Positions 676 to 19,208 of a DNA stretch of 32,750 nt are shown piece by piece; positions within the stretch are counted from its first letter, which is position 1; each line of letters starts with the position of its first letter. This DNA is from Sulfurihydrogenibium sp. (GTDB lineage: Bacteria; Aquificota; Aquificia; Aquificales; Hydrogenothermaceae): NCBI GenBank assembly GCA_037442825.1, contig JBBIPN010000006.1, positions 1-32,750 on the forward strand. Reading direction: 5' to 3'. A program made the translations under genes and the position numbers. The notes below the pieces were generated by a model. The model was given only the letters and a program-made list of their open reading frames with translations, was not told where the DNA came from and made no database searches.

Positions 676-3042
676 TTAAAAGAATGTTCCTAAAGTAAAT
701 CCAAACCTTGAATCACTAACACCATCAGGTGGATTTAATACTTTACCATAGTAAATTTCAATTGGAGCAAATGGTGTAATTATTTTAAGCCCAGCACCTA
801 ATGAGTTGTACATATTAGAAAAAATATTTCCTTTATCAAAACCTTTACCTTGATCTAAAAAGACATATCCCCATAAAAATCTTTCTACTATAGGATGTGA
901 TAACTGATAATTTAAAATGATCTCTCTTTTTGCACCAGCTGGTTCTTTATTACTATCAATTGGACCTGCTCTACCCCACTCAAAACCTCTTAGTGTAAAA
1001 TCCCCACCAACAAAGAAAAGCTGGTCAAGAGGAATCTCTTTAGATATTTTTTCTACAAAACCAAATGTACCTTTAATAGAGAATATAAAATCTGTGTAGA
1101 AAAATTTATCTGGGAATAACTTTGTTCCTGAAATAACAGCTTTATAGTAATCTCTTTTCCCCGTACCTACAGACAATGTTAATGATACATCACTACCTTG
1201 TGTAGGTAGAAGTGGATTATCTATAGTATTCCTATTTATAAACCAATATGTAGAATATAAGTTATATTTACCTGCTTGCTTTTTTATGTAATCTGAAGCT
1301 GTGCTTTGTATATCCTTATATTCGCCTTTTTCCAACGTTAAACCTACACCTGTAGTCCAAAAATCTTTAAACTGATATGAAATGGTTGGAGAAAATCCTG
1401 TTTTTGTAGCAATGAACGAAGTATAATCTATATAGTTATCATAGAGATTTAATCCCAAATCAAGCGGTTTGTAAAACGCCCATCTATGTAAGTAAGAAAG
1501 AGAATTATTTCTGTACTTAGAACCTATAGATAATGATAGTCCAGCTGTATCCCCTGTACCTAAAAAATTACCTTTTTTAATAGATGCAAAGAAAGATAAA
1601 CCTGTTAACTGACTATAACCAGCACCAATAGACATCTGACCAGTAAACCTTTCTGCTACTTTTACATCAACATTCATCTCATTTTCAGACTTAACTTGAG
1701 GGTCAAATCCAATCATATCGTAGTATCCAAGTTTATAAAGCTTAGCTTGGGATTTATAAAGAGTATCTTTTTTAAATACATCTCCTGGAGCAAAGAAGAG
1801 CTCTCTTCTTATTGTTGAATCTCTGGATTCATAATTTCCAGAAATATCTACTTTATCTACATAGAAAATATTACTTTTATTTATATTAAATACTAAATCT
1901 ACTTCTTTTTTATCTTTGTTAACAATCTTATTAACTTCTACATTTGCAAATATATATCCAAGGTCATTATACTTTTCCATAATATTTTTCTTTATAAATT
2001 CAACCTTTTCACCATCATAGTATTCACCTACATTTATCTTTTTCTTTTTTGTAACTTCCAACAACTCTTTACTTGTATAAAGATCATTATTTTCAACTTT
2101 CACAGAAGAAACTTTATATCTATCACCTTCTTTTACTTTTATTACAATTTTATATCTTTTACCATCTATTAAGTCTATCTCTGGTTGAGATATTTCAACA
2201 TCAAAAAATCCTTTACTTATATAAAACTCTTTTACTTTATCTATGTCTTCATATAGTGTTTCCTTTACAAGTCTTGGTCTAAACTTTAACTTAAATATAT
2301 TTCTTTCTGATGTCTCCATTACAGAAAGTATCTCTTTTGTTTTTATGTTTTTGTTACCAACAATTTCAATTTTATCAACGTAAGCTTGAGATCCTTCTTC
2401 TATTTTAAAAACTAACGTGTTTCCTTTATAATGATATTTTGCTTTTACACTATAGTAACCTTTTTTTTCATAAGCTTTTTCTAATCTTTTTATCATTTGA
2501 CCAATTTCATCGTTAGATAAAACTCTTCCGAGACCTTTCTTTATAGATGAAAGTTTCTCATTTAGTTCTGGACCTAAAGGAGAAAAAGGCAATCCTTTAC
2601 CTGTTTCAAACTTCTCTTCTAAAGAAATACCTATCTCTTTTAATAAATCTTCCCTTGAAAATGCCTTATTTCCTTCAAACTCTATCCTTTGGACAACTGG
2701 AAGTTCTCTAAAAACAAACGTTATATCTATTCCATTCTCAGTAAATCGTGTATATGTCTCAACATTAGCAAAGTATCCTAACTTATAAAGGTCTCTTATA
2801 GTATTTTCTATTGTGTCCCTTGTAACTACTGCACCATTACCAAAAGGGATAAGAGGTTTAATAATCTCTTCATTAAAATACTTTAATCCTCTTATCTCTA
2901 TTTTTCCTATTCTATATACTTTAGAAACTTCCTCTGAAATTGTTCCTGTTTTTATTTCTGATGTTTGATTTTCTTGGGCTGTAGATTTTTGAGAAGAGAA
3001 GAGAATAGCTGCAGCCAGCGATATGGCTGCAACTTTATTTAT
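676..3042 (-). CDS. bamA: Outer membrane protein assembly factor BamA (Omp85); start revised from 3297 to a probable ATA at 3042
   Basis: POTRA repeats, [12 protein letters not shown] (VRGF-like) motif, C-terminal Phe. The signal-peptide-like segment [22 protein letters not shown] begins at 3042; the track start at 3297 lies deep inside clpC. Confidence 0.9.
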
Positions 3043-5483
3043 GCCATTTGAAACTCTTTCTTTTTCCTGCCTCTTCTTATTACTTTTATAGGTTTCAACA
3101 TTACCTTTCCATCTTCCATGGTTACTTCCACAGTCTGTCCAGGCTGTATTTTCCCAGCTAATATCTCTTCTGCTAACAGATCTTCTACTTGAGATTGTAA
3201 AGATCTCTTTATGCTTCTTGCACCATATTCTGGTTTGAACTCTTTCTCTATCAAGTACTCCACAAAGGAAGGGTTTAATTTTACTTTTATTTGCCATTCT
3301 TTTAACCTTTCATTTATTTCTTTAATTTGTATATCTATTATACCTTGAATTACAGATTTGTCTAAAGGTTTGAAAACTATTATTTCATCAAGCCTATTTA
3401 TAAACTCTGGGTTAAATGCTTTTCTAACTTGATCTAAAACGTTCTTCTTTAAATCTTGATAATCTAAGAGGGATGATCTTGTTTCAAATCCCATTTTACC
3501 ACTGTCAAGTATCAACTTAGCTCCAAGGTTAGAAGTCATAATTATTATTGTATTACTAAAATCAACAACTCTACCAAGAGAATCTGTTAATCTTCCATCA
3601 TCAAATATTTGTAAAAATATATTAAATACATCTGGATGAGCTTTTTCTATTTCATCAAATAGTATTACAGAGTAAGGCTTTCTTCTTACAGCTTCTGTAA
3701 GTTGTCCACCTTCTTCATATCCTACATATCCTGGAGGTGCACCTATCAATCTTGAAACTGTATGTTTTTCCATATATTCACTCATATCAAATCTAATTAA
3801 AGCATCTTCTTTTCCAAATAAGTATTCAGCTAAAGCTTTTGCTGTTTCTGTTTTACCTACACCTGTTGGTCCTAAGAATAAGAAAACACCAATAGGTCTA
3901 TGTCTACCTTTTAGTCCAACACTATTTCTTCTGATAGCTTTTGCTATTGCACTTATAGCTTCATTTTGGTCTACAACACGCTTATGTAATTCCTCTTCTA
4001 TATGTAAAAGTTTTTCTTTATTTGATTCTGTAAGTCTTGCTATAGGTATTCCAGTCCATCTTGCAATTACTTCAGCTATATCTTTTTCTGTAACTTTTGG
4101 TTTACTTTCTTTCATCTCTTCTTTCCATTTCAATTTTAATGTCTCAAGTTTTGCTCTTAATTTTACTTCCTCATCTCTTAACTTGGCTGCTCTATCAAAA
4201 TCTTCTTTCTTAATACTTTCTGTTTTTTTATCTTCAATATCTTTTATCTTTTCTTCAAGTTTTTTTAAGTTTTCTGGTAGTTGTAATTCTCTTAATCTTA
4301 CTAATGCACCAGCTTCATCTAATAAGTCGATAGCTTTATCTGGAAGTTGCCTGTCAGATATGTACCTTACTGAAAAATCTACAGCTTTTTCTATAGCATC
4401 TTTTGTAAACTCAACATTATGAAACTCTTCAAATTTATGTTTTAAACCTTCAAGTATTAAAATAGTATTTTCAGGTGATGGTGGATCAACGATTACAGGT
4501 TGGAATCTTCTTTCTAAAGCACCATCTTTTTCTATATACTTTCTGTATTCATCTAAGGTCGTAGCACCTATTACCTGTATCTCTCCCCTTGCTAAAGCTG
4601 GTTTTAACATATTAGACGCATCCAATGAACCTTCTGCTGAACCAGCTCCTACAATAGTATGTAACTCATCTATAAATAAAATTACAGAAGGATTTTTTTC
4701 TAACTCTTTTAGTATTGTTTTTAATCTTTCTTCAAACTGACCTCTATACTTTGTCCCAGCAACTAAAGATGCAAAGTCAAGAGCTACAACTCTTTTATTT
4801 AAAAGTGTCTCTGGTACTTCCTTGTTTACAATTCTTTGAGCTAAACCTTCTACAATTGCTGTTTTACCTACACCAGGTTCTCCGAGTAATACTGGATTAT
4901 TTTTTCTTCTTCTTGATAGAATTTGTATAACTCTATCTATTTCTCTATCTCTACCTATTACTGGATCTAATTTTCCTTCTTTTGCAAGAGCTGTTAAATC
5001 TCTTCCATATCTATCAAGATTTGGTGTTGGTATCTGTTTTGTTTGCTCCTGTGGCGGTATCTCCCCAAGTAAAGACAATACTTCTCTTCTTATTGAGTAC
5101 TCATCTATTCCAAAATTCCTTAAAATTCTACCACCTAAGCCAGACTTTTCTCTTGCTATACCTATTAAAAGATGTTCTGGACCTACAAACTGGTGATGAA
5201 GTATCCTTGCTTCTTCTACTGCATACTCAAGAACTCTTTTTGCATCAGGAGAAAATAGTATCTCTCCAGAATGTGTCCCCCTTGGAATCTGAGATATTAG
5301 TGTCTTCTTAACCTTATCTGGAGATAAGCCAAACTTTGATAACACTAAAACAACCATATCATCTTCTTCAATCAACGATAATAGAAGATGTTCACTTCCA
5401 AGGTAGTTATTTTTATATTTTAATGCATACTCTCTTGCATTTAGTATTACTTTCCTTGCTTTTTCTGTAAATTTTTCAAACAT
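3039..5483 (-). CDS. clpC: ATP-dependent Clp protease ATP-binding subunit ClpC
   Basis: Clp N-terminal repeats ([12 protein letters not shown]), two AAA+ modules ([16 protein letters not shown]), short UVR-type middle domain ([11 protein letters not shown]), ClpP-docking-like loop MGF. Confidence 0.92.
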
Positions 5484-8707: not shown

Positions 8708-9292
8708 ATGAAAAAATTATCAGTAATGGCATTGTCAACGCTGTTATCAGCTTCACTTATTTTAAGTTGTCAAAAGAAAGAAGAAACATCTACTGAAACT
8801 GAGCAATCACAACAAGAAACCATATCACAGCCAACCCAACAACCAGAGCAACAACAAACTCAGCAGGAAACAGTTCAACAACCAGAGCAAAAACTTGTAC
8901 AAAAAGAAGAACAACCAGTTCAACAGCAACAACCAGCTGAAAAACAGTTAGCAAATAAAACAACCGAAACAAAAGCAGCTGAAAGTAAAAAAGTAGAGGA
9001 GAAAAAATCAGAAGAAAAAACTGTAGCAAAAGTTGATGGAGAATCTATTTTTAAATCAAAAGGATGTACAGCATGTCACCAAGCAGCTGCTGATACAGTC
9101 GGACCTTCTTTGAAAAAGATAGCTGCTACCTATTCAGGAAAGAAAGAAGATTTAGTTAAGTTCTTAAGTGGAGAAGGAAAAGCTATAGTTGACCCAGCAA
9201 AAGAAGCTATAATGAAACCACAACTTGAAGTTACTAAAAAGTTAAGTAAAGAAGAAAAAGAAGCTTTAGCAGATTTTATTTTAAAACATTAA
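8708..9292 (+). CDS. Lipoprotein-anchored monoheme class I cytochrome c (c555/c552-like) with long Q/E/P-rich linker
   Basis: Lipobox-like LILSC, low-complexity linker, single CTACH haem motif, VGPSLK and IMKPQ (probable axial Met). Confidence 0.85.
   Translation: MKKLSVMALSTLLSASLILSCQKKEETSTETEQSQQETISQPTQQPEQQQTQQETVQQPEQKLVQKEEQPVQQQQPAEKQLANKTTETKAAESKKVEEKKSEEKTVAKVDGESIFKSKGCTACHQAAADTVGPSLKKIAATYSGKKEDLVKFLSGEGKAIVDPAKEAIMKPQLEVTKKLSKEEKEALADFILKH
8837..8890 (+). repeat. 15-bp direct repeat CAACAACCAGAGCAA (QQPEQ) x2 within the cytochrome linker
   Basis: Identical copies at 8837-8851 and 8876-8890, with degenerate QQP units nearby. Confidence 0.8.
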
Positions 9293-9314
9293 TTAAATTT
9301 GGAGGTGTGTTGTC

Positions 9315-9437
9315 ATGGAGATGACTTTTGGTGGTATTCCAAGCGCTGAAGTAATATTATTAGCTTTAATGTTGACTCAGCTTGTATTTTTGTGGGGTTC
9401 AATAATGTATAAAATGGGGACAAAAGAAGAAAAATAA
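9315..9437 (+). CDS. Small single-TM membrane protein, 40 aa (not in ORF track)
   Basis: GGAGGTG RBS at 9301-9307 and ATG at 9315. MEMTFGGIPSAEVILLALMLTQLVFLWGSIMYKMGTKEEK has one hydrophobic helix and a charged tail. Followed by a hairpin. Confidence 0.75.
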   Translation: MEMTFGGIPSAEVILLALMLTQLVFLWGSIMYKMGTKEEK

Positions 9438-9457
9438 TTGAAAAAAAACTCATTTAA

Positions 9458-9483
9458 AAGGCTGAAAATCTATATTCAGCCTT
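9458..9483 (+). terminator. Probable intrinsic terminator after the cytochrome c/small peptide pair
   Basis: AAGGCTGAA-N8-TTCAGCCTT inverted repeat; U-tract is weak. Confidence 0.55.
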
Positions 9484-9513
9484 AACCTTTAAAAAAATTA
9501 GAAAGGAGATTTT

Positions 9514-9762
9514 ATGGAGAAGAGAGCCTATGCTTTTGTTATTCCTGGATTTTTTATTACATCTGAAGATCCAAATACCATCTTCAAAGAAGATGTAACT
9601 GCTGAAGATATGGAAGAGATAGAAAATCTTTTAAAGGAAAAGTTATTTAAAGAAGGTGTAGATGTAGCAATAGCCCCTTCTATAGTACCACCCCATCAAG
9701 CAAATGAAGTTTTAAATGAATTTTCAAATGTTATATTTGGAACTGGAGAAAATAATGGTTAA
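9514..9762 (+). CDS. Hypothetical acidic protein, 82 aa
   Basis: AGGAG RBS, host-like codon use, stop overlaps the dapB start. Confidence 0.7.
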   Translation: MEKRAYAFVIPGFFITSEDPNTIFKEDVTAEDMEEIENLLKEKLFKEGVDVAIAPSIVPPHQANEVLNEFSNVIFGTGENNG

Positions 9763-10561
9763 TATAGCCATATCAGGTATTATGGGGAGAATGGGTAAAA
9801 AGATAGCAGAACTTGCTTCTGAAGATAGTAATTTAAATATTGTTGCTGGTATAGAAAATCCAGATTGTGCCCATTTACATAATACTGTAGGAGAAATAAT
9901 ATCTAAAAATATAGAGGCTCCAATAACGTCAGACATATCAAAAGTCATTGAAAATTTTGATGTACTTATAGAGTTTGCAAACAACACAGAAGCTGTTTTA
10001 GGTCATCTTAGGATACTTGCTGCAGATGAAAATAAAAAAGCAGCTGTGATAGGTACAACAGGTTTTTCTCAAAACCAAATAAAAGAAATAGAAGATCTTT
10101 CAAAAGATATACCTATAGTTTTAGCACCAAATATGAGTATAGGTGTAAACCTTTTGTTTAAATTGGTAGAAAAAGCAGCAAAAGTTTTAAAAGATAAAGG
10201 TTTTGATATTGAAGTTATTGAGATACATCATAGATTCAAAAAAGATGCACCTTCTGGTACTGCAGTTAAAATTGTTGATATCCTAAAAAAAGAAACAGAT
10301 ATTGAAAAAGTAGTTTATGGAAGAGAAGGTTTAACAGGGGAAAGAGATATTAAAGAAATCGGTGTTTTTGCTCTTAGAGGTGGTGATGTTGTTGGAGAAC
10401 ACACTGTAATATTTGCAAGTTTTGGGGAAAGAATAGAACTTACACACAGAGCAACATCGAGAGACATTTTTGCTAAAGGAGCTTTAGAAGCTGCAAAATG
10501 GATAGCTGATAAACCGGCTGGTCTATACAATATGCAAGATGTTTTAAATCTAAATGAGTAA
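9755..10561 (+). CDS. dapB: 4-hydroxy-tetrahydrodipicolinate reductase (start revised to ATG 9755)
   Basis: GIMGRMG, GTTGF, APNMSIGVN, EIHHRFKKDAPSGTA and RGGDVVGEH motifs. GGAG RBS before 9755. Confidence 0.95.
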   Translation: MVNIAISGIMGRMGKKIAELASEDSNLNIVAGIENPDCAHLHNTVGEIISKNIEAPITSDISKVIENFDVLIEFANNTEAVLGHLRILAADENKKAAVIGTTGFSQNQIKEIEDLSKDIPIVLAPNMSIGVNLLFKLVEKAAKVLKDKGFDIEVIEIHHRFKKDAPSGTAVKIVDILKKETDIEKVVYGREGLTGERDIKEIGVFALRGGDVVGEHTVIFASFGERIELTHRATSRDIFAKGALEAAKWIADKPAGLYNMQDVLNLNE

Positions 10562-10781
10562 TAATGTAAATAAAACATTTTCCTTTTTAACTATAGGATT
10601 ACATTTAGTTTCTGGTATAATTGTAGGTGTTGCTATAGGGTATTTTCTTGATAAATTTTTCGGAACATCTCCTTACTTAACGTTAATATTTTTCTTTTTA
10701 GGTCTTCTTGCAGGCTTTAAAAATATGTATGTAGATGCTAAAAAATATATAGAAAGTCAGGAAGAGAGTAAAAAGAAATAA
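10554..10781 (+). CDS. AtpZ/AtpI-family (ATPase gene 1) small membrane protein
   Basis: Two TM helices with pattern IGYFLDKFFGTSPYLTLIFFFLGLLAGF. Confidence 0.75.
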   Translation: MSNNVNKTFSFLTIGLHLVSGIIVGVAIGYFLDKFFGTSPYLTLIFFFLGLLAGFKNMYVDAKKYIESQEESKKK

Positions 10782-10901
10782 AACATTCTTTTTCTTTATC
10801 TTTTTTTTCAAAATTTTTATTCATTACACAAAACCATTGATTTTAAAGAAAAATAACTTATTAATTAGTATTGATAAAAAACTTTAAAAGGAGGATTTAA
10901 G

Positions 10902-11336
10902 ATGAACTTTGAAAAGTATGTAGAAAAAGGAAACATCTTTTTGAAAGAACTTGCTGAAGAACTTGGTATTCCAGAAGATAAAGAAAGAGCAGGAAGAATA
11001 CTTAGAACTGTTTTACATACTCTTAGAAGAAGGTTAACATTAGAAGAATCTTTCGATTTAATATCTCAACTTCCAATGTGTATAAAAGCAATATATGTTG
11101 ATGGTTGGAAACCTTCACCATTTCCAGATAAAACTATAAAAACAGCAGAAGATTTTATAAATGAAGTTTTAGAAGAAGATAAAAGATCTGCTGGAAAAGA
11201 TTTTGGAAATGAAGAACATGCAAAACAAGTTATAAAAGCAGTTTTTAGAGTTATAAAGGGACATGTTTCTGATGGTGAAATCCAAGATATAAAAGGAGAT
11301 TTACCAAAAAGTTTAAAAACTTTATTTGAAGATTGA
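10902..11336 (+). CDS. DUF2267-like helical protein
   Basis: RTVLHTLRRRL...LISQLP...GW and AVFRVIKGHVSDGEI...LP motifs, typical of this family. GGAGG RBS. Confidence 0.75.
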   Translation: MNFEKYVEKGNIFLKELAEELGIPEDKERAGRILRTVLHTLRRRLTLEESFDLISQLPMCIKAIYVDGWKPSPFPDKTIKTAEDFINEVLEEDKRSAGKDFGNEEHAKQVIKAVFRVIKGHVSDGEIQDIKGDLPKSLKTLFED

Positions 11337-11531
11337 TTATATATTATTATCTTTTTCTATATTTTTCTTTTCATACTTTTTAGCTCTTTCGTCTTGCTGT
11401 TGATGTTTTTTAACAAATTTAAAGATATAAACTAAGATAATAATAGCTATTGTCCATCCAATGAAATGTACTATACCTTGCATTGCAGTGTAATTGTGAG
11501 CAAGATTAACTATTCCTTGATACGGTTCCAT
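11337..11531 (-). CDS. Small single-TM hypothetical membrane protein, 64 aa
   Basis: GAGGTG RBS upstream, one TM helix followed by a basic tail, divergent from mrp. Confidence 0.7.
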   Translation of the reverse strand: MEPYQGIVNLAHNYTAMQGIVHFIGWTIAIIILVYIFKFVKKHQQQDERAKKYEKKNIEKDNNI

Positions 11532-11567
11532 ATATTCACCTCATATTTAAGACTTTCATATCTCGAA

Positions 11568-11581
11568 ATGACTTCAATCAT
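11568..11581. promoter_or_regulatory. TGA-N6-TCA palindrome (Crp/Fnr-like) upstream of mrp
   Basis: ATGACTTCAATCAT. TATAAT at 11584 and TATTAT at 11603. A similar site occurs before iscU. Confidence 0.4.
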
Positions 11582-11632
11582 AGTATAATTAAATATATAG
11601 TTTATTATATCATAACTAAAAAGGAGGTTTAT

Positions 11633-12709
11633 ATGGCACTTCAAGGAATAGTAGATACCTTAAAAAAAGCAACATTAGAAGAAATAGGTATTAGTTTTTC
11701 ATTAGCAGATTTAATGAAAGATTTAAAAGTAGAAGGTGATAATGTATATATACTAATATTCTCTCCAAGTGAAAAATACCATGACTATTTAAAAGAAAAA
11801 GTAAGAAATACCCTTGGTTCTATTGGAGCTAAAGATATAACTGTGGAGTTTACAGATAAACCACCTGTCAGTAAACAACCACCGACACCACCTCCTCAAC
11901 CACAGAATCCATTTGAAACAAGGAGAAGAATACCTAACGTTAAAAACGTTATAGCAGTAGCTTCAGGTAAAGGTGGCGTTGGAAAATCTACTGTTGCAGT
12001 TAATTTAGCATCTGCACTCAAAAAACTTGGATACAACGTAGGATATTTAGATGCTGATATGTATGGTCCAAGTGGTCCAACCATGTTTGGTGCTAAAGAT
12101 AAGAAAGTAATGGCAAGGCAAACACCAGAAGGAGATAAAATCATAGCACCAGAAGCACATGGTGTTAAAGTTATGTCTATAGGTTTCTTACTTCCTTCAG
12201 AAGATACACCAGTTATATGGAGAGGACCTGTTTTATTTAAAGCGTTAACACAGTTTCTATTTGACATTGATTGGGGTGAAAAACCTTTAGATTTCTTAGT
12301 TATAGATTTACCACCAGGAACAGGAGATGTTCAGATTACATTAGGTCAAACTGCTGAGATTGATGGAGCTGTAATTGTAACTACACCACAAGACGTTGCA
12401 CTTATTGACGTTAAAAAAGGAATACAGATGTTTAACGAAGTCAAGATTCCTATTTTAGGTGTAGTTGAAAATATGAGTTACTTCGTTTGTCCTGATAGTG
12501 GGAAAATATATGAAATATTTGGAAAAAGTAAAACAGAAGAAGTTGCAAAAAGTTATGGAACAGGTCTTTTAGGTAAAATACCTATTGAACCAAAGGTAGC
12601 AGAGTTTTCAGATTTAGGTATTCCAATTGTATTTGCAAAGGAAGACTCTCAGTCTACACAAGAATTTATAAATATAGCAAGAAAAATTGCAGAGAAATTA
12701 AAAGCTTAG
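11633..12709 (+). CDS. mrp: Mrp/NBP35 (ApbC) Fe-S carrier ATPase with N-terminal DUF59-like domain
   Basis: ASGKGGVGKST, DADMYGPS, WRGP, DLPPGTGD, TTPQ and ENMS motifs. Confidence 0.92.
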   Translation: MALQGIVDTLKKATLEEIGISFSLADLMKDLKVEGDNVYILIFSPSEKYHDYLKEKVRNTLGSIGAKDITVEFTDKPPVSKQPPTPPPQPQNPFETRRRIPNVKNVIAVASGKGGVGKSTVAVNLASALKKLGYNVGYLDADMYGPSGPTMFGAKDKKVMARQTPEGDKIIAPEAHGVKVMSIGFLLPSEDTPVIWRGPVLFKALTQFLFDIDWGEKPLDFLVIDLPPGTGDVQITLGQTAEIDGAVIVTTPQDVALIDVKKGIQMFNEVKIPILGVVENMSYFVCPDSGKIYEIFGKSKTEEVAKSYGTGLLGKIPIEPKVAEFSDLGIPIVFAKEDSQSTQEFINIARKIAEKLKA

Positions 12710-12718
12710 GAGGTTACT

Positions 12719-13930
12719 ATGAATAAAAGGATATATGTAGACCATTTAGCAACTACACCAGTATGTGATGAAGCAATAGAAGCTATGATGCCATATTTAA
12801 AAGAAAAGTTTGGTAATCCAACATCATTACATGAAATGGGAATAGAAGCAAAGAAAGCAATAAATAGAGCAAGAGAGCAAGTTGGAGAACTTTTAAACAT
12901 TTCTAAACCTGAAGAAATTGTTTTTACATCTGGAGCGATAGAAGCAAATAACCTTGCTATTAAAGGTTATGCAAAAGCACCAGGTAGAAGAGGAAAACAT
13001 ATTGTAGTTTCAGCAATAGAACATCACTCTATTTTACACTCCTGTAAAACACTCGAAAAGGAAGGCTTTGAGATTACAGAAGTCCAACCTGACGAATATG
13101 GAATTATAAGTCCAGAAAAACTTGCTGAAGCTGTCAGAGATGATACCATACTTGTATCTGTAGGGTTTGCAAACAGGGAAATAGGTACAATTCAAGATAT
13201 GCCAGCATTAGTAGCTGCTGTAAAAGAGAAAAACCCAAGGGTAGTTTTCCATTCAGATATAGCTGCTGCTGTTGGACATATGCCTGTAGATGTTGAAGGA
13301 TGGGGTCTTGATATGGCATCCTTCACAGGTCATTACTTCTATGCACCTAAAGGTGTTGGTGGTTTGTATATTAAAAAAGGCATCAGAATAAAACCACTTA
13401 TAGAAGGTGGAATACAAGAAGGTGGTAGAAGAGCAGGTACAGAAAACGTACCTGGCATTGTAGGAATGGGAGCTGCAGCAGAACTTGCAATAAAAGAAAT
13501 GGATGATAGAGTAAACAGATTGAAGTACCTTAGAGATAAACTAAAAAAAGGAATTGAAGAAAGGATACCTTACATAAAATTTACAGGACATCCAGAAAAA
13601 AGATTACCAAACCATCTATCTTTAATTGTTATGTATATAGAAGGTGAAGCAATGTTACTTATGCTAAATATAAAGAAAACCTACACAGCTTCAGGTTCTG
13701 CTTGTGTATCTTACGCTTTAAAACAATCTCACGTTTTAGCAGCTATAGGTGTTGAGAAAGAAGCATCAAACGGTTCTATCGTATTTTCTTTAGGTAGAGA
13801 CAACACTAAAGAAGATATAGATTATATAATAGAAGAATATCCAAAAGTAATAGCAAGATTAAGGGAGATTTCTCCATTTAACCCAGAAAACTGGGAAGAG
13901 TTTACAAAGAAAGCATCAAAATTTAAATAA
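12719..13930 (+). CDS. iscS: IscS/NifS-family homologue lacking the PLP Schiff-base lysine (probably not a canonical cysteine desulfurase)
   Basis: Fold motifs ATTP, GNPTSLH, RAGTENVP and SGSAC (Cys329) are present, but GHK is GHY (Tyr206). Confidence 0.85.
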   Translation: MNKRIYVDHLATTPVCDEAIEAMMPYLKEKFGNPTSLHEMGIEAKKAINRAREQVGELLNISKPEEIVFTSGAIEANNLAIKGYAKAPGRRGKHIVVSAIEHHSILHSCKTLEKEGFEITEVQPDEYGIISPEKLAEAVRDDTILVSVGFANREIGTIQDMPALVAAVKEKNPRVVFHSDIAAAVGHMPVDVEGWGLDMASFTGHYFYAPKGVGGLYIKKGIRIKPLIEGGIQEGGRRAGTENVPGIVGMGAAAELAIKEMDDRVNRLKYLRDKLKKGIEERIPYIKFTGHPEKRLPNHLSLIVMYIEGEAMLLMLNIKKTYTASGSACVSYALKQSHVLAAIGVEKEASNGSIVFSLGRDNTKEDIDYIIEEYPKVIARLREISPFNPENWEEFTKKASKFK

Positions 13931-13944
13931 GTGATATTAATCAT
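13931..13944. promoter_or_regulatory. TGA-N6-TCA palindrome (Crp/Fnr-like) upstream of iscU
   Basis: GTGATATTAATCAT, centred 29.5 bp before TATTTT (13967-13972), matching class II (-41.5) geometry. Confidence 0.4.
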
Positions 13945-14001
13945 TGGAATGAAAATTTTAAAGGAATATTTTAAAGTAAACTAAATCAGGAGGTTTTTGA
14001 A

Positions 14002-14463
14002 ATGTTTGAGTATACAGAAAAAGTTATGGATCACTTTATGAATCCAAGGAACCTTGGAGAAATACCAAATCCAGATGGTTATGGTCAATGTGGAAATCCA
14101 TCTTGTGGTGACGCTATGTTATTTACAATAAAAGTAGATAAAGATACTGATATAATCACAGATGTTAAATTTAAAACATTTGGTTGTGGTTCAGCTATAG
14201 CAGTGTCATCAGTATTAACAGAGATGGTAAAAGGTAACTCTATAAATTATGCTTTAAATCTTACATACAAAGAGATATTTGAAGAGTTAGGTGGATTACC
14301 ACCACAAAAGATTCATTGTACAAACTTAGGACTTGAGACCTTACACGTTGCTATAAAAGACTATCTATTAAAACAAGGAAGAGTTGAAGAAGCAAATAAA
14401 ATTCCTGACTGTATAGAAGAAGATCACGAAGAAGAAACCATATCTTTAGAACATATAGGATAA
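14002..14463 (+). CDS. iscU: Fe-S cluster scaffold IscU/NifU-N
   Basis: HFMNPRNLG, CGD (C35, D37), KTFGCGSAIA (C62), LPPQKIHC (H105, C106). Confidence 0.93.
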   Translation: MFEYTEKVMDHFMNPRNLGEIPNPDGYGQCGNPSCGDAMLFTIKVDKDTDIITDVKFKTFGCGSAIAVSSVLTEMVKGNSINYALNLTYKEIFEELGGLPPQKIHCTNLGLETLHVAIKDYLLKQGRVEEANKIPDCIEEDHEEETISLEHIG

Positions 14464-15521
14464 TGAAAAGAAAAGCTGTAGCACTTTACTCAGGAGGGCT
14501 TGATAGTACTTTAGCTATCAAGCTTATCCAAAATCAAGGAATAGATGTTTTAGCTATTCATTTCTATACAGGATTTTGTATAACAGAAACAAAAAGAAGA
14601 AGAGGAGAAAAAAAAGAAGACGGTACATACTATATGAACCCAGCTTTAAAGTATGCTGCAAAGTATGGATTTAAATTAGAAATAGTAGATATATCAGAAG
14701 GTTATATGGATGTTATTCTAAACCCTAAGTACGGTTATGGTGCAAATATAAATCCATGTATAGATTGTAGAATATACATGCTTAAAAAAGCAAAAGAGAT
14801 AATGAAAGAAATTGGAGCCGACTTTGTAATTTCTGGAGAAGTCTTAGGTCAGAGACCAAAAAGTCAAAAATCTTTTCCTATGAAAATAATAGAAAAAGAT
14901 TCTGGATTGGAAGGTTTGATACTAAGACCTCTTTCTGCAAAAAAACTACCACCAACAATTCCAGAAATTAAAAAGTGGGTTGATAGAGAAAAACTTGAAG
15001 GAATAGTAGGAAGAAGTAGAAAAAGACAAATTCAACTTGCAAAAGAGCTTGGTATAGAAGAATATGAATCTCCAGGAGGCGGTTGTTGTTATCTTACTGA
15101 TGAAAATTATGCTTTTAAATACAAAGAAACATTAGAAAGGGAACATAAGATAACGTACGATGACTTAGTTTTATTTACAGTTGGAAGACATTTTAGATTA
15201 GATTCTGGAACAAAAGTTATAGTATCAAGAAATGAAGGAGAAAATAACTTTCTATCAGGGTTTAAGAAAAAATATCATTTCTTTGAACCAGTTGGTAAAG
15301 GACCAGTAGCAATAATAAAAACTTTAGAAGATTCCTACTTAGATGAAGATGATAAACAGATTATAGCCAATATAATAGCAAGATATTCTAAAACAGACAA
15401 TGGAAAAATTGATGTAAAATATTATTATGTGGATAATGTTGAAACGTTGGTAGGTTTTCAAATAGAAGATGAAATTTTAAATGAATGGAGGATATCACAA
15501 TGGAAATCAAAGCAGACATAG
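14463..15521 (+). CDS. PP-loop ATPase of the ThiI/MnmA-like sulfurtransferase group, THUMP-less, with a probable C-terminal DUF814/NFACT-R-like domain
   Basis: SGGLDS PP-loop, NPCIDCR, GEVLGQRPKSQ, LRPLSAK, GGGCC, GRHFR and RNEGEN motifs. Confidence 0.75.
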   Translation: MKRKAVALYSGGLDSTLAIKLIQNQGIDVLAIHFYTGFCITETKRRRGEKKEDGTYYMNPALKYAAKYGFKLEIVDISEGYMDVILNPKYGYGANINPCIDCRIYMLKKAKEIMKEIGADFVISGEVLGQRPKSQKSFPMKIIEKDSGLEGLILRPLSAKKLPPTIPEIKKWVDREKLEGIVGRSRKRQIQLAKELGIEEYESPGGGCCYLTDENYAFKYKETLEREHKITYDDLVLFTVGRHFRLDSGTKVIVSRNEGENNFLSGFKKKYHFFEPVGKGPVAIIKTLEDSYLDEDDKQIIANIIARYSKTDNGKIDVKYYYVDNVETLVGFQIEDEILNEWRISQWKSKQT

Positions 15522-15733
15522 TACACGATGCAACGGGAACATACTGCCCAATACCAATAACAGAGCTTGCAAAGGTAGCAAAGAAAGCAGAAAAAGGACA
15601 AATAATAGAACTTTTAGCAGATGATGAGGGTGCTATTCAGGATGTACCAGCATGGTGCCAAACAACTGGGAATGAATATTTAGGTTATAAAGAAGAAGAT
15701 GGAGTTTATCACTTTTACGTTAGGAAGGTATAA
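15500..15733 (+). CDS. tusA: TusA/SirA-family sulfur carrier (start revised to ATG 15500)
   Basis: DATGTYCPIP motif, ADDEGAIQDVPAWC. GGAGG RBS before 15500. Confidence 0.85.
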   Translation: MEIKADIVHDATGTYCPIPITELAKVAKKAEKGQIIELLADDEGAIQDVPAWCQTTGNEYLGYKEEDGVYHFYVRKV

Positions 15734-15954
15734 TGAAGTTGACAGTAGAAAGTAAAATATCAGATATATTTAAAGAGCTTCCTAAAATTGAGGAAATTTT
15801 GAAACCACATTTAAAATATTTTTACGACGAAAGACTTGATAAAATTATTTTTAAAAAAATTAGTCTATTAGGTGCATTAAAATTGATAAATATTTCTCAA
15901 GAAGATAGAGAAAAAATTATTCAAGAGTTTTATAAGATCGTGAATAAACATTAG
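15733..15954 (+). CDS. Small hypothetical helical protein (DUF1858-like appearance)
   Basis: TAATG stop/start coupling to tusA. Pattern KISDIFKELPKIEEIL...SLLGALKL loosely resembles DUF1858. Confidence 0.6.
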   Translation: MKLTVESKISDIFKELPKIEEILKPHLKYFYDERLDKIIFKKISLLGALKLINISQEDREKIIQEFYKIVNKH

Positions 15955-15963
15955 GAGTCAAAA

Positions 15964-16218
15964 ATGGTAGATTTAGATAGGGAACAAGAAGTTAGAGTAA
16001 TTTTAGAAAAAATCAGACCAGCACTTTTAGAAGATGCTGGCAATATAGATCTTGTTAAAGTTGAAGGAGATGAGGTTTTTTTAAAACTTTATGGAACCTG
16101 TCAAACCTGTCCTGTTGCTGATATGACAATGAAAAACCTTGTAATTTACACAATAAAAGAATCTTTACCTTGGGTTAAAGCAGTAAACATAGGAGAAGAA
16201 AAATATCAGATAACATGA
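15964..16218 (+). CDS. NifU C-terminal (Nfu) domain Fe-S carrier
   Basis: LEKIRPALLEDAGNIDLV...LKLYGTCQTCP (CxxC). Confidence 0.88.
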   Translation: MVDLDREQEVRVILEKIRPALLEDAGNIDLVKVEGDEVFLKLYGTCQTCPVADMTMKNLVIYTIKESLPWVKAVNIGEEKYQIT

Positions 16219-17060
16219 TAATTAACGGAGAAACAAAAGTATACGGAATTTTTGGTTATCCAGTAAAACACTCAAAATCTCCTTTATTTCAAACAGAAGC
16301 ATTTAAACATTGTGAAATAAATGCGGTTTACGTTCCATTTGAAGTTAAACCAGAAAATATTCAAAAAGCTGTTGAATCGGTAAAAGCATTAAATATTCAA
16401 GGTATAAATATAACAGTGCCCCATAAAGAATCTGTTATTCCTTATTTAAATGAGCTATCAGAAGAAGTAAAGATAATAAAAGCTGTAAACACAATAAAAA
16501 ATGTAGATGGATATTTAATTGGTTATAACACAGATTGGTATGGTTTTATAGAAGGTTTAAAAGAAATTTTCCCAAACATTTCTGGTAAGAGAGTTTTAGT
16601 TATAGGAGCTGGTGGAAGTACAAGAGCTGTCATTTATGGTTTATTAAATGAAGGTGTAGGAAAGGTTTACATTGCAAATAGAACTATTAATAAAGCACAA
16701 CAGATAATAGAAGATTTTTCGGAAGTTTATAGAATAGCTAAAATGATTTTGAAATCCATAAGTTTAAAGGATATTGAAAATATCATTGATGAAGTAGACT
16801 TAATTGTCAATACTACTTCAGTTGGTTTGGTGGAAGATGATTTACCTATATTTAACTATGATATACTAAAACAAAAACATACAGTTGTTGATATTATATA
16901 CAAAGAAACACCATTACTAAAAAAAGCAAAAGAAAAAAATCTAAAATATCAAAATGGTTATCCTATGCTTATATACCAAGGTGCTAAATCTTTTGAAATA
17001 TGGACAGGACAAAAAGCACCTATAAATGTAATCAAAAAAGTTTTAGGTATTGAAAAATAA
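16215..17060 (+). CDS. aroE: Shikimate dehydrogenase
   Basis: HSKSP, NITVPHK, AVNT, NTDWYGF, GAGG, NRT and MLIYQG motifs. ATGA overlap with the nfu gene. Confidence 0.95.
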   Translation: MIINGETKVYGIFGYPVKHSKSPLFQTEAFKHCEINAVYVPFEVKPENIQKAVESVKALNIQGINITVPHKESVIPYLNELSEEVKIIKAVNTIKNVDGYLIGYNTDWYGFIEGLKEIFPNISGKRVLVIGAGGSTRAVIYGLLNEGVGKVYIANRTINKAQQIIEDFSEVYRIAKMILKSISLKDIENIIDEVDLIVNTTSVGLVEDDLPIFNYDILKQKHTVVDIIYKETPLLKKAKEKNLKYQNGYPMLIYQGAKSFEIWTGQKAPINVIKKVLGIEK

Positions 17061-17077
17061 ATTTTTTAGTGTATAAT
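17050..17077 (+). promoter_or_regulatory. Sigma70-type promoter of the DEAD-box helicase
   Basis: TTGAAA-N16-TATAAT. Confidence 0.55.
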
Positions 17078-17093
17078 AGATACAAGAATATAA

Positions 17094-17166
17094 AAAGAGG
17101 AAAAAAGTCCTCACAAATCCCATTAGATTCAAATCTAATGACAGTCTGAAGATTCTTTTCCTCTTT
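17094..17166 (+). promoter_or_regulatory. Structured 5' leader RNA (long outer stem enclosing inner hairpins)
   Basis: AAAGAGGAAAA pairs with TTTTCCTCTTT (11 bp). Inner CATTAGAT/ATCTAATG hairpin at 17121-17140. Confidence 0.55.
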
Positions 17167-17196
17167 AAAAATAAAATTTTTTAAGGAGGCATTTTT

Positions 17197-18384
17197 ATGT
17201 CAAATCATCAAAAAACATTTAGAGATTTAAACATTTCTAAGGAAACTTTAAAATCTCTTGAAGATTTAGGTTATTTAAAACCAACAGAAATTCAAGAGAA
17301 AGCAATCCCATTAGTTATGGAAGGAAAAGATTTAGTAGCACAAGCACAAACTGGTACTGGAAAAACAGCTGCATTTGGAATACCAATAGTTGAAAAAGTA
17401 AATCCTAAACAAAGAAAAATCCAAGCTCTTATTTTAGTTCCTACAAGAGAGTTGGCTATACAAGTAGCAAAAGAGATTAGAGACATTGGAAAAAATAAAA
17501 AAGTTTATACATTAGCTGTGTATGGCGGTAAATCTATACAACATCAAATAAACTTTTTAAGGAAAGGTAGTGATGTTGTTGTAGTAGGAACACCTGGTAG
17601 AGTAAAAGATCTATTAGAAAGAGGACATTTAAAATTAGATAATGTAAAAATGTTTGTTCTTGATGAAGCAGATAGAATGTTAGAAATGGGATTTATTGAA
17701 GATATTGAAGATATAATGTCATATTTACCTGAAAATCAACAAAATTTACTATTTTCTGCTACTATGCCAAAAGAAATTTTAGATTTAGCACAAGAATTTT
17801 TAAATCCTGATTATAATACTATTAAAGTAAAACCAGATGAAGTTACTGTTGAAAAGATAAAACAGGTAATCTATAGAGTTAATATGAGAGATAAGTATAA
17901 AAAATTAACAGAAGTTTTATTTCACGAAGAAGAATCAGATAAGATAATAATCTTCACTCAAACAAAATTAGAAGCTGATGACCTTGCAAATCAACTTAAA
18001 GATGAAGGATTTAGTGTAAGTGCGATACACGGTGATTTTTCACAAAAGAAAAGAGAAACTGTTTTAAACAACTTTAGAACAGGTAAATTAAAAGTATTAG
18101 TTGCTACAGATGTTGCGGCAAGGGGATTGGATATTAAAGGTGTTAGCCTTGTTATCAATTATGGTTTACCAAGAGATACAGAAAGTTATATACATAGAAT
18201 TGGAAGAACTGGTAGAGCTGGCAGAGAAGGAACTGCAATATCTATTATGACACCATCAGAAGATAAACAACTTTTAAACATCCAAAGAAAGACAAAAGCT
18301 AATATAGAATTTATCAATCAAGTTGAAGAAAAAGTCCATACCGAAAGAAAGCAGACAAGAAGAAGATTTTTAAAAAGAAGTTAA
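17197..18384 (+). CDS. DEAD-box RNA helicase (CshA/DeaD-like, short C-tail)
   Basis: Q motif, AQTGTGKT, PTRELA, DEAD, SAT, ARGLD and HRIGRTGR motifs. Confidence 0.95.
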   Translation: MSNHQKTFRDLNISKETLKSLEDLGYLKPTEIQEKAIPLVMEGKDLVAQAQTGTGKTAAFGIPIVEKVNPKQRKIQALILVPTRELAIQVAKEIRDIGKNKKVYTLAVYGGKSIQHQINFLRKGSDVVVVGTPGRVKDLLERGHLKLDNVKMFVLDEADRMLEMGFIEDIEDIMSYLPENQQNLLFSATMPKEILDLAQEFLNPDYNTIKVKPDEVTVEKIKQVIYRVNMRDKYKKLTEVLFHEEESDKIIIFTQTKLEADDLANQLKDEGFSVSAIHGDFSQKKRETVLNNFRTGKLKVLVATDVAARGLDIKGVSLVINYGLPRDTESYIHRIGRTGRAGREGTAISIMTPSEDKQLLNIQRKTKANIEFINQVEEKVHTERKQTRRRFLKRS

Positions 18385-18393
18385 TATAAAAAA

Positions 18394-18416
18394 TCCCCTA
18401 TTTTTTAGGGGACTTT
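18394..18416 (+). terminator. Intrinsic terminator, possibly bidirectional
   Basis: TCCCCTA-N5-TAGGGGA hairpin just after the helicase stop, with A-tract before and T-tract after. Confidence 0.7.
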
Positions 18417-19208
18417 ATAAAATATGAGAGTTGCTACCATAGCAATAGAGATACTATATAAAAAAGCCAGATTAAATCCATAATTTCCCTAAATAAAATC
18501 CATTAATATATTAGTTGGAAACAATATTAACCTACTAAAGCGTGATATAAAAGCTCTCATATCTCCATCTGTAAAACCAAACTAAATCTAGATTTTTATT
18601 AAAAACAAATGTTGTACATAATAAAGTCAAAAAATATAATATTTTCCCTTTTAAATTTATCAAATAATACACCAGCAGAATAACTCCAAAGAAAGTAAGA
18701 GATATTAAAAAGAAGCCAAATCTTTTGCCCTTAAGATCGAATAAGATATAAAAAAATCATTGTAATTTTTAATCTCTTTTTTCTCCTTTACTCCAAATAT
18801 AATAAAATAGCTAAAAATACTGGGATAAAAGAAAAAAGTGATTAAAGGATCTATTACTACTCCTAAGGTATCCCTGAAATCCATTATTAATACATCTCTT
18901 GACCCAGTTCTTATACCTTTACCAAATCTATCTAAAAATACATGCCATTTTGTATATTGATAGAAAAAGTAAACCTTTAGATAAAGCCGAAATAAAATAT
19001 CTAGCAAAAACTAAACTTTTCCCTTGATTTAATTTGTCAGAAAAAATACCAACTTACTGTAGACTCTGAAAAAGCTTCAATAAATCCTATAAATAATAGT
19101 TGATCTTTTATGTTAAAAACAATTTATGTTATCTCCGTTGAAATATCCCTTAATAGACTAACAAAAGCAGGGAAAATGATATTTCTATTTAAAACTGTTA
19201 CTTTTCAT
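18405..19208 (-). pseudogene. Decayed MFS transporter
   Basis: Fragments in different frames: LNRNIIFPAFVSLLRDISTEI*, FIGFIEAFSEST, GIFSDKLNQGKSLVFARY, FLDRFGKGIRTGSRDVLI, YSAGVIFDKFKRENII and NYGFNLAFLYS. Multiple stops and frameshifts in about 800 bp. Confidence 0.8.

Follow-up and report, generated by a model that had tools for sequence, protein, structure and literature searches.

Where does the sulfur of iron-sulfur (Fe-S) clusters come from in a bacterium whose IscS has lost the lysine that binds pyridoxal 5'-phosphate (PLP)? The question is raised by a cluster of seven genes, mrp*-iscS*-iscU-PP-loop-tusA-orf6-nfu, at positions 11633–16218 of a 32,750-nucleotide (nt) stretch of DNA from the hot-spring bacterium Sulfurihydrogenibium sp. 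(Aquificales, Hydrogenothermaceae), in which IscS* is a desulfurase look-alike lacking catalytic residues and Mrp* a non-canonical Mrp. This stretch, hereafter the window, is contig C6 of genome G000 (1.35 Mb, 137 contigs, 99.16% complete); GC content is ~30%. The first-pass annotation proposed a single, self-contained and desulfurase-independent pathway, in which environmental or dissimilatory sulfur is routed through TusA and Cys329 of IscS* to build clusters and thiolate RNA. We favor a different reading, to which we assign a probability of roughly 65%: the cluster would be a housekeeping Fe-S operon that joins two blocks, mrp*-iscS* and iscU-thiolase-tusA-DUF1858-nfu-aroE, and combines a sulfide-fed assembly of the minimal ISC (MIS) type with a separate tRNA thiolase. 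Its observational basis consists of the residues that IscS* and Mrp* have lost, the conservation of the two blocks, and searches of G000 and its closed relatives in which a canonical desulfurase and SufBD were not found.

IscS* lacks the catalytic residues of cysteine desulfurases

IscS* (12719–13930, + strand, 403 aa) has the type-I cysteine-desulfurase fold, and its alignment with the class-V aminotransferase family PF00266 (9.9e-72) spans profile positions 1–370 of 371. Its scores fall below the NCBIfam equivalog cut-offs of both NifS (TIGR03402, 470 against 530.75) and IscS (381 against 643). According to the alignment, the PLP-binding lysine of the HK motif, which we take to be K206 in E. 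coli numbering, is replaced by Y206, and three further active-site residues are gone, with R153 in place of Asn, A183 in place of Gln, and V355 in place of Arg. Cys329 is retained in an SGSAC loop. The term pseudo-IscS, given to this protein in the first-pass annotation, is therefore apt.

The same pattern was found throughout an alignment of 20 orthologues, from 11 Hydrogenothermaceae and nine Aquificaceae genomes, together with 14 second paralogues. The lysine site reads GHY in the 11 Hydrogenothermaceae orthologues, AHL in the nine from Aquificaceae, and GHK in the canonical paralogues. All 20 orthologues carry NRE for NNE, AAA or APS for VQS, and IVFS or VVFS for VRFS, and the SGSAC Cys loop is present in every one of them. 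They are 63–97% identical across the two families. The second paralogues are fully canonical in 13 of 14 cases. Judged from these sequences, IscS* is a Lys-less and very probably PLP-free protein. A third IscS-like paralogue, sharing 49% identity with IscS* and having GHY and a degraded Cys loop (SSNSPC), was noticed in L127 (G114:C112:1-6329, ORF 2154-3350).

The best match in the PDB is a 406-aa "cysteine desulfurase" (E 3e-190, ~75% identical) deposited in seven entries (9wfy, 9wfe, 9wf8, 9wfb, 9wew, 9wer, and 9wep). In 9wfy, the Lys site is occupied by Leu and the chain reads NRE and AAPS, identical in pattern to the Aquificaceae orthologues, and at the sites lost in IscS* other chains of the series show K, N, Q, or R; we read the series as a wild type with engineered variants. 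A literature search by PDB codes found no paper on these entries, and no literature on Lys-less IscS in Aquificales was found. The best PDB match from outside the Aquificales is the IscS of A. fulgidus (348 bits vs 312 for E. coli IscS), of which 4eb5 and 4r5f match IscS* at 6e-103 to 7e-103. In the available text of two papers, A. fulgidus IscS is reported to be an inactive paralogue, the Cys of which ligates a [2Fe-2S] cluster on IscU (PMC8918507, PMC13066941).

Canonical desulfurase and SufBD in the genomes

A tblastn search of G000 with five canonical paralogues from relatives hit only IscS*, revealing no canonical desulfurase. The other class-V protein of G000 above the cut-off is a 384-aa aminotransferase with an SGSQK motif, which fits the model of aspartate-glyoxylate aminotransferase best. 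Searches for SufBD were negative in G000 and in its same-genus relatives G032, G045, G065, and G062. The closed genome G032, as well as G045 and G065, contains IscS* and the aminotransferase only, with no canonical desulfurase; the closed genome G062 has a canonical paralogue besides IscS*. In four of five closed or near-closed Aquificaceae genomes, the sole strong class-V match is IscS* (266–280 bits), the next match in these four scoring 92–107 bits and covering the stretch of the profile that the aminotransferase also matches. One IscU per genome, the operon's copy and the only NifU_N match, was detected in G000, G032, and G062, each of which also has one IscA encoded elsewhere. The single IscU and the searches that found neither SufBD nor a canonical desulfurase point most naturally to Fe-S assembly independent of a desulfurase in the genomes concerned.

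The class-V aminotransferase of G000, of the glyoxylate/serine type, is encoded in L002 (G000:C20:5910-9851) by ORF 1459-2613, directly followed by a histidine-phosphatase-family ORF (2617-3252); the two resemble a pair of the serine pathway rather than a desulfurase. A canonical desulfurase, in those members of the genus that have one, immediately follows the N-terminal half of a split leuS, as does ORF 3001-4131 in L121 (G062:C1:1592916-1600037). The leuS half of G000 lies on C31, which continues for another 3.7 kb, and the neighboring genes are on other contigs.

The claim of desulfurase-independent assembly thus stands in part. It agrees with the searches of G000 and of closed relatives, and a canonical paralogue occurs in four of eight members of the genus, so that a canonical IscS encoded elsewhere, which the first-pass annotation had regarded as evidence against its proposal, is present in half of the genus and was not found in G000. 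That desulfurase-independence holds for G000 and several closed relatives, and not for the whole family, is well supported. In Aquificaceae, more than one IscS-like match was detected in 19 of the 72 genomes having a match, some of the extra matches being contig-end fragments or containing in-frame stops.

The operon joins two conserved blocks

The order mrp-iscS*-iscU-PPloop-tusA-orf6-nfu-aroE is kept in 10 of 11 Hydrogenothermaceae loci; in the exception, L104, mrp-iscS* stands alone. All nine Aquificaceae IscS* loci consist of mrp-iscS* alone, and the second block, iscU-PPloop-tusA-orf6-nfu-aroE, was found in the Aquificaceae contigs L020, L021, and L080, with iscU seen in L021 alone, the contig that extends upstream. 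A Lys-less IscS beside IscU without ISC accessory genes is accordingly seen in the window and, across Hydrogenothermaceae, in 10 of 11 loci, but in none of the nine Aquificaceae loci. In one Hydrogenothermaceae genus (L109 and L110), about 2 kb separates iscS* from iscU; the insert in L109 (6238-8255) consists of two genes that run on the opposite strand, one for a ClC chloride channel with CBS domains and a small one of winged-helix-like appearance. In a third family of the order, seven of eight genomes encode the PP-loop protein and none of the eight IscS*.

These distributions do not sustain one self-contained seven-gene pathway, since the array is kept in one family only and occurs as two blocks in the sister family. 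As a test of co-occurrence and synteny, the array held in Hydrogenothermaceae; it was split in Aquificaceae, and elsewhere only the PP-loop gene and tusA remained together. The first-pass annotation also knew of no characterised system with this combination of genes. In its available text, however, the study of Burroughs and Aravind (2014; PMC4075521) describes ThiI+DUF814/TusA with an IscS-like protein and IscU/NifU in Aquificae. The operon is a lineage-specific fusion of two conserved blocks made of known kinds of parts, and not a new system.

Mrp*, IscU, and Nfu

Mrp* (11633–12709, + strand, 358 aa) is an Mrp/ApbC-type P-loop ATPase of ParA-like fold (PF10609, 4.6e-98) with the deviant Walker A motif GKGGVGKS. 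It scores below the equivalog cut-offs of ApbC (291 against 348) and MrpORP (294 against 450). The cluster-binding CxxC motif reads C286-P-D-S289 (residues 284–290, window 12482–12502), the second Cys being gone; at the site of the window's CPDSG, PDB homologues read CSNCG or CPNCG. This Cys is absent from 20 of 20 Aquificales Mrp proteins encoded beside IscS*, one of which also lacks the first Cys, and a non-Aquificales Mrp (L024) carries CPHCG. The association of the two genes is constant: mrp* adjoins iscS* in 20 of 20 loci.

The scaffold IscU (14002–14463, + strand, 153 aa; PF01592, 7.9e-51, 171.9 bits) scores slightly under the cut-off of TIGR03419 (172.3 against 187.9). Its translation contains the canonical ligands C35, D37, C62, H105, and C106, the LPPQK motif, and an acidic C-terminal tail. 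The last of the seven genes encodes an Nfu-type Fe-S carrier domain (15964–16218, + strand, 84 aa; PF01106, 4.8e-20, 71.9 bits against a cut-off of 27) with a C46-Q-T-C49 motif in its translation.

A candidate tRNA thiolase and its TusA partner

The fourth gene (14463–15521, + strand) encodes a 352-aa ThiI-like PP-loop ATPase. Its matches to ThiI (PF02568, 7.9e-12, 45.6 bits) and to the MnmA HUP domain (5.4e-08, 33.2 bits) are both weak, and its C-terminal part, residues 241–343, is an NFACT-R_2 domain (PF18297, 5.4e-19, 68.7 bits against a cut-off of 26.9) that had gone unnamed in the first-pass annotation. Among 40 diverse homologues (39–60% identity), S10, G11, G12, L13, and D14 of the SGGLDS motif (residues 10–15) are invariant, as are G183, R184, R186, and Q189 of GRSRKRQ (183–189). 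C99, C102, and C209 are likewise invariant, which bears out the earlier description of a Cys-rich PP-loop ATPase. The family is large, with 838 cluster representatives at E<=1e-30, and the nearest named homologues are from Sulfurihydrogenibium, Persephonella, and other Hydrogenothermaceae. The AlphaFold2 (AF2) model has a predicted local distance difference test (pLDDT) score of 94.1. Foldseek searches with this model gave matches at the superfamily level only, namely [4Fe-4S] LarE, MnmA, ThiI, TtuA, NcsA, and argininosuccinate synthase, with template modelling (TM) scores of about 0.3–0.5 and 13–21% identity; the ThiI structure 4kr6 aligned with TM 0.40 and a root-mean-square deviation of 3.8 over 222 columns.

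TusA is encoded at 15485–15733 (+ strand, 82 aa; PF01206, 2.1e-22, 79.2 bits against a cut-off of 28.6), its likely start being the second Met at 15500. It missed the NCBIfam TusA equivalog (45.9 against 78). The sulfur carrier's C21-P-x-P motif and W57-C58 are conserved, and C21, P22, and P24 are invariant in 34 sequences.

The pairing of these two genes extends far beyond the Aquificales. A scan built from the 40-sequence alignment yielded 592 confirmed relatives, the best 80 loci of which were analyzed; among their sources are Gammaproteobacteria, Myxococcota, Acidobacteriota, Planctomycetota, and Omnitrophota. By tblastn, tusA directly adjoins the PP-loop gene in 61 of these best 80 loci, nfu and aroE occur in three (Aquificaceae), iscU in one, mrp in one, and IscS, within about 8 kb, in none. 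By phmmer on ORFs, a TusA gene was found on the same strand within 400 nt of 66 of 90 PP-loop genes. The supposed tie between IscS* and the PP-loop/TusA pair is not supported by these loci or by the third family, in which IscS* was not found. TusA tracks the PP-loop enzyme rather than IscS*, and a routing of sulfur from TusA to Cys329 is not supported.

A model of the TusA–PP-loop complex, which the first-pass annotation had suggested as a check, scored 0.68, and the best of three controls scored 0.01. As rough counts from author-made alignments, 116 of 157 solved complexes and two of 215 mismatched pairs attain 0.68. Runs agreed in at least 95% of contacts, with a partner pLDDT of at least 86, and the modeled interface places TusA residues 20–23 (including C21), 25–26, 29, and 47–61 against enzyme residues 31–76. 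This model supports a predicted binding of TusA to the PP-loop enzyme. We know of no solved PP-loop/TusA complex.

The architecture corresponds to the ThiI+DUF814 family defined by Burroughs and Aravind in 2014 (PMC4075521). In the available text of that study, TusA is the sole conserved neighbor of ThiI+DUF814 and is fused to it in Francisella, the family is distributed almost exclusively against THUMP-ThiI, the neighborhood gains an IscS-like desulfurase and IscU/NifU in "several aquificae", and a tRNA 4-thiouridine (s4U) pathway is predicted for ThiI+DUF814/TusA. A full, THUMP-type ThiI was not detected in any of 61 genomes from the order, 60 of which have the PP-loop protein; the best PF02568 match in those 60 reaches only profile position ~144, in a frame of ~330–380 aa that corresponds to the PP-loop protein itself, and five weaker extra matches are also partial. 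For T. thermophilus MnmA (C-type), activity is reported to require a [4Fe-4S] cluster, ATP, and sulfide (PMC7025502, available text). From the three invariant Cys residues and the domain composition, the PP-loop/NFACT-R protein is a candidate [4Fe-4S]-dependent tRNA thiouridine synthase.

A replacement of MnmA by this enzyme was considered and rejected, since 58 of the order's 61 genomes encode MnmA, six of six members of the genus among them. With MnmA in these 58 genomes, 2-thiouridine at position 34 is already provided for. G000 also has a TtuA-like protein, TilS, and QueC. Elsewhere in G000, the minus strand of L012 (G000:C25:5467-8679) carries a second sulfur-relay cluster, with a MoeB/ThiF-like E1 (275 aa), a TusA (77 aa), and three small DsrE/TusD-, TusC-, and TusB-like ORFs; these moeB-tusA-tusDCB-like ORFs of C25 are named by look alone, and no desulfurase to charge that cluster was found in G000. 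A 411-aa ORF at G000:C24:4261-5496, with a weak PP-loop match (PF03054), a Cys-rich N-terminal part, and a long extra domain, is QueH-like by look.

orf6, aroE, and the limits of the operon

The small gene orf6 (15733–15954, + strand, 73 aa) lies between tusA and nfu in both Aquificales families (orthologues in L100–L110 and in L020, L021, and L080). The first-pass annotation described it as a small unknown, and the window copy indeed has no Pfam match; however, nine of 17 orthologues match PF08984 (DUF1858), the best at 8.8e-09. A word-based homologue search gave only six close relatives, and the link to DUF1858 comes from orthologues excised from the loci. The AF2 model is a Cys-less five-helix bundle (pLDDT 93.2). 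Foldseek returned no match at E<=0.001; the top solved fold was 2fi0, with a probability of 0.97 and TM 0.65, yet with E 0.34. This entry is, we assume, a DUF1858 member. The small, all-helical, and Cys-less orf6 protein is probably a divergent DUF1858 domain.

The ORF listing of the window confirmed the coordinates and the strand of seven contiguous, tightly packed + strand genes at 11633–16218, several of which overlap. From the first gene to the seventh, the junctions are a 9-nt gap, a 71-nt gap, a 1-nt overlap, a 37-nt overlap, a 1-nt overlap, and a 9-nt gap; the PP-loop/tusA overlap is 22 nt rather than 37 if TusA begins at its second Met, as in relatives. The shikimate dehydrogenase gene aroE (16215–17060, + strand; TIGR00507, 263.5 bits against a cut-off of 200) overlaps nfu by 4 nt, so that the unit comprises eight genes and ends beyond 16218. 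It accompanies the iscU-to-nfu block in both families, an association that speaks against explaining the operon by function alone. As the first-pass annotation had stated for the cluster, hscAB, fdx, iscA, iscR, and sufBCD are absent, none being present in the ORF listing at 9000–19000.

Signals of transcription were uninformative: in 10800–17400, 23 promoter-like sites were found vs 32.2 expected, and four terminator-like sites vs 2.1. A + strand stem-loop at 17160–17189 overlaps the ribosome-binding site of the gene after aroE. Upstream of the cluster, an ORF at 8708–9292 encodes a lipoprotein-like product, probably a membrane-anchored cytochrome c, in which a long linker is rich in Gln, Glu, and Pro and the C-terminal part bears a CxxCH heme-binding motif.

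Proposed role of the operon

The biochemical steps of the favored reading are all taken by analogy from relatives of the encoded proteins. IscS* would no longer cleave cysteine and may serve as a dimeric platform for IscU, lending Cys329 as a cluster ligand as in the IscS-IscU pair of A. fulgidus. The sulfur would be free sulfide, plentiful both where these sulfur oxidizers live and in their metabolism, and the assembly would be of the MIS type running on sulfide; both MIS and SMS are reported to be able to use sulfide (PMC13066941, available text). Finished clusters may be handed on via Nfu, Mrp*, and the IscA encoded elsewhere. The PP-loop enzyme would be a client and a separate module, holding a [4Fe-4S] cluster on C99, C102, and C209. 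It may adenylate a uridine of tRNA, most likely U8, in place of the missing THUMP-ThiI, and sulfur could then be inserted from a sulfide on the free iron of the cluster and/or from a persulfide on the dedicated TusA. Its position beside iscU and nfu would reflect its need for a cluster, with no sulfur relay via IscS*.

Several points weigh against this reading. In G000, mnmA was not found, though six of six genus and 26 of 26 family relatives have it; this is probably an assembly gap in a genome of 137 contigs, and absences in G000 alone are therefore weak, so that the closed relatives carry the argument. Four of eight genus members and 26 of 35 other family members with a match have a second IscS-like match, which proved canonical in each case checked, and a real desulfurase could thus supply sulfur in most of the family. 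The Cys loss makes a carrier role of Mrp* uncertain, as far as its sequence tells. The predicted TusA interface, on enzyme residues 31–76, is away from the three-Cys site, and 4-thiouridine at position 8 (s4U8) as the target nucleoside remains a prediction; s4U8 is reported to occur in Aquifex tRNA. The presence of aroE in the operon means that co-transcription need not imply a shared function. In the literature, we found no biochemistry on any protein of this lineage.

In a more far-reaching and rather unlikely version, IscS* and the single-Cys Mrp, two degenerate proteins whose genes always adjoin, would form with IscU an obligate sulfide-fed complex that requires no cysteine desulfurase, holds a nascent cluster between Cys residues of different proteins, releases it through ATP hydrolysis on Mrp*, and constitutes the cells' only Fe-S machinery.

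Alternative explanations

The product of the PP-loop/NFACT-R enzyme may be something other than s4U8, such as another thionucleoside, an rRNA modification, or a thio-cofactor, with the gene placed beside iscU and nfu only for its cluster need. The scattering of its nearest folds over the PP-loop superfamily at low TM and identity and its weak ThiI and MnmA scores would agree with such a product, as would the literature search, which found no experiment on the PP-loop/NFACT-R family. We nevertheless consider this unlikely, because the family's distribution is complementary to that of THUMP-ThiI, both in the available text of PMC4075521 and in the 61 genomes of the order, the ThiI-type CxxC and internal Cys are present, and MnmA, the TtuA-like protein, and TilS already cover other positions. 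Less probable still is the single relay of the first-pass annotation, from environmental or dissimilatory sulfur via TusA and IscS* Cys329 to both IscU clusters and RNA thiolation. The genes of all its players adjoin one another here and in 10 of 11 loci from Hydrogenothermaceae, IscS* retains the persulfide-carrying Cys loop, and E. coli TusA and IscU are both reported to bind IscS (PMC2854127, PMC11302665; available text). Against this, IscS* stands apart from tusA in all nine Aquificaceae loci, the best 80 loci outside the order lack a nearby IscS, and one family of the order has the PP-loop protein and no IscS*; moreover, the known direction of transfer is from IscS to TusA, not the reverse.

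It is also conceivable that IscS* still mobilizes sulfur catalytically by a non-canonical route, for instance with a non-covalent PLP or another cofactor, and the strong conservation of its fold and Cys loop across two families does indicate selection on the protein. However, the joint replacement of four PLP/substrate residues in 20 of 20 orthologues, together with the reported inactivity of the A. fulgidus protein of the same kind (PMC8918507, available text), makes catalysis very improbable. The PDB variants with K, N, and Q at the lost sites suggest an attempted restoration of function, which also argues against it.

Significance

A Lys-less IscS, an MIS running on sulfide, and a ThiI-NFACT-R/TusA module with its Aquificae neighbors are already in print or in the PDB. 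Within the literature searched, the new elements, as judged from the genomes, appear to be the many Aquificales with a PLP-free IscS only and no SUF, the constant company that a Lys-less IscS keeps with a single-Cys Mrp, the probable DUF1858 protein in the module, and the three-Cys Fe-S reading of the NFACT-R thiolase.

Desulfurase-independent assembly has so far been studied mainly in methanogens and A. fulgidus. If all clusters of these bacteria are built on a PLP-free IscS with sulfide, the Aquificales would provide a cultivable bacterial model of such assembly, for which a crystal structure of an IscS* orthologue is already deposited. If the IscS*-Mrp*-IscU complex exists, a present-day bacterium would exemplify the kind of assembly from sulfide that has been proposed for early life. 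The pairing of IscS* with a single-ligand Mrp is a testable lead on cluster hand-over. For the widespread family of the PP-loop/NFACT-R protein with TusA, the prediction dates from 2014 and an experimental test is absent from the literature searched; the ThiI-less Aquificales offer a clean setting in which s4U formation and the Fe-S dependence of the enzyme could be tested.

Comparison with known systems

The protein of the 9wep–9wfy series is an orthologue of IscS*, although from the sister family, the window belonging to Hydrogenothermaceae. The closest characterized counterpart outside the order is the A. fulgidus IscS-IscU pair (PDB 4eb5, 4eb7, 4hvk, and 4r5f), whose IscS, like IscS*, is without the PLP lysine, has the Cys loop, and is encoded beside IscU. 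It is archaeal, whereas IscS* is bacterial, and the residues replacing Lys differ from the Y or L of IscS*. Unlike in the A. fulgidus pair, the constant neighbor of IscS* in Aquificaceae is the non-canonical Mrp and not IscU. MIS (minimal iron-sulfur system, MisS/MisU; Garcia et al. 2022, as cited in PMC13066941) similarly has a cluster with an IscS-like and an IscU-like protein and without HscAB, Fdx, IscA, and IscR; in the available text of PMC13066941, MisS is described as a desulfurase and MIS as having no carrier, whereas IscS* appears non-catalytic from its sequence and two carriers, Mrp* and Nfu, are encoded in the operon. With the ApbC/Mrp/Nbp35 carriers (PDB 8zkc, 2ph1, and 3kb1), Mrp* has in common the fold and the deviant Walker A motif, with 247 bits to 8zkc, but these carriers possess the cluster-bridging CxxC where Mrp* reads CPDS.

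For the thiolase block, the ThiI+DUF814 family agrees with the window enzyme in architecture, CxxC plus internal Cys, GRxRxxQ, the TusA neighbor, and the absence of THUMP-ThiI. The available text of PMC4075521 assumes that the adjacent IscS is active and charges TusA, whereas here its lysine is lost, and that text proposes no Fe-S cluster on the three Cys residues, unlike the reading given here. TtuA, NcsA, C-type MnmA, and LarE have in common with the window enzyme a PP-loop and three Cys residues (CxxC...C); they differ in the RNA-binding domain, which is NFACT-R here, and the solved members are 13–21% identical to it. As in the E. coli relay IscS-TusA-TusBCD-TusE-MnmA, a Cys-Pro TusA serves a PP-loop thiolase. 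Unlike in that relay, no active IscS to load TusA was found in G000, and TusA is predicted by the complex model to touch the thiolase directly.

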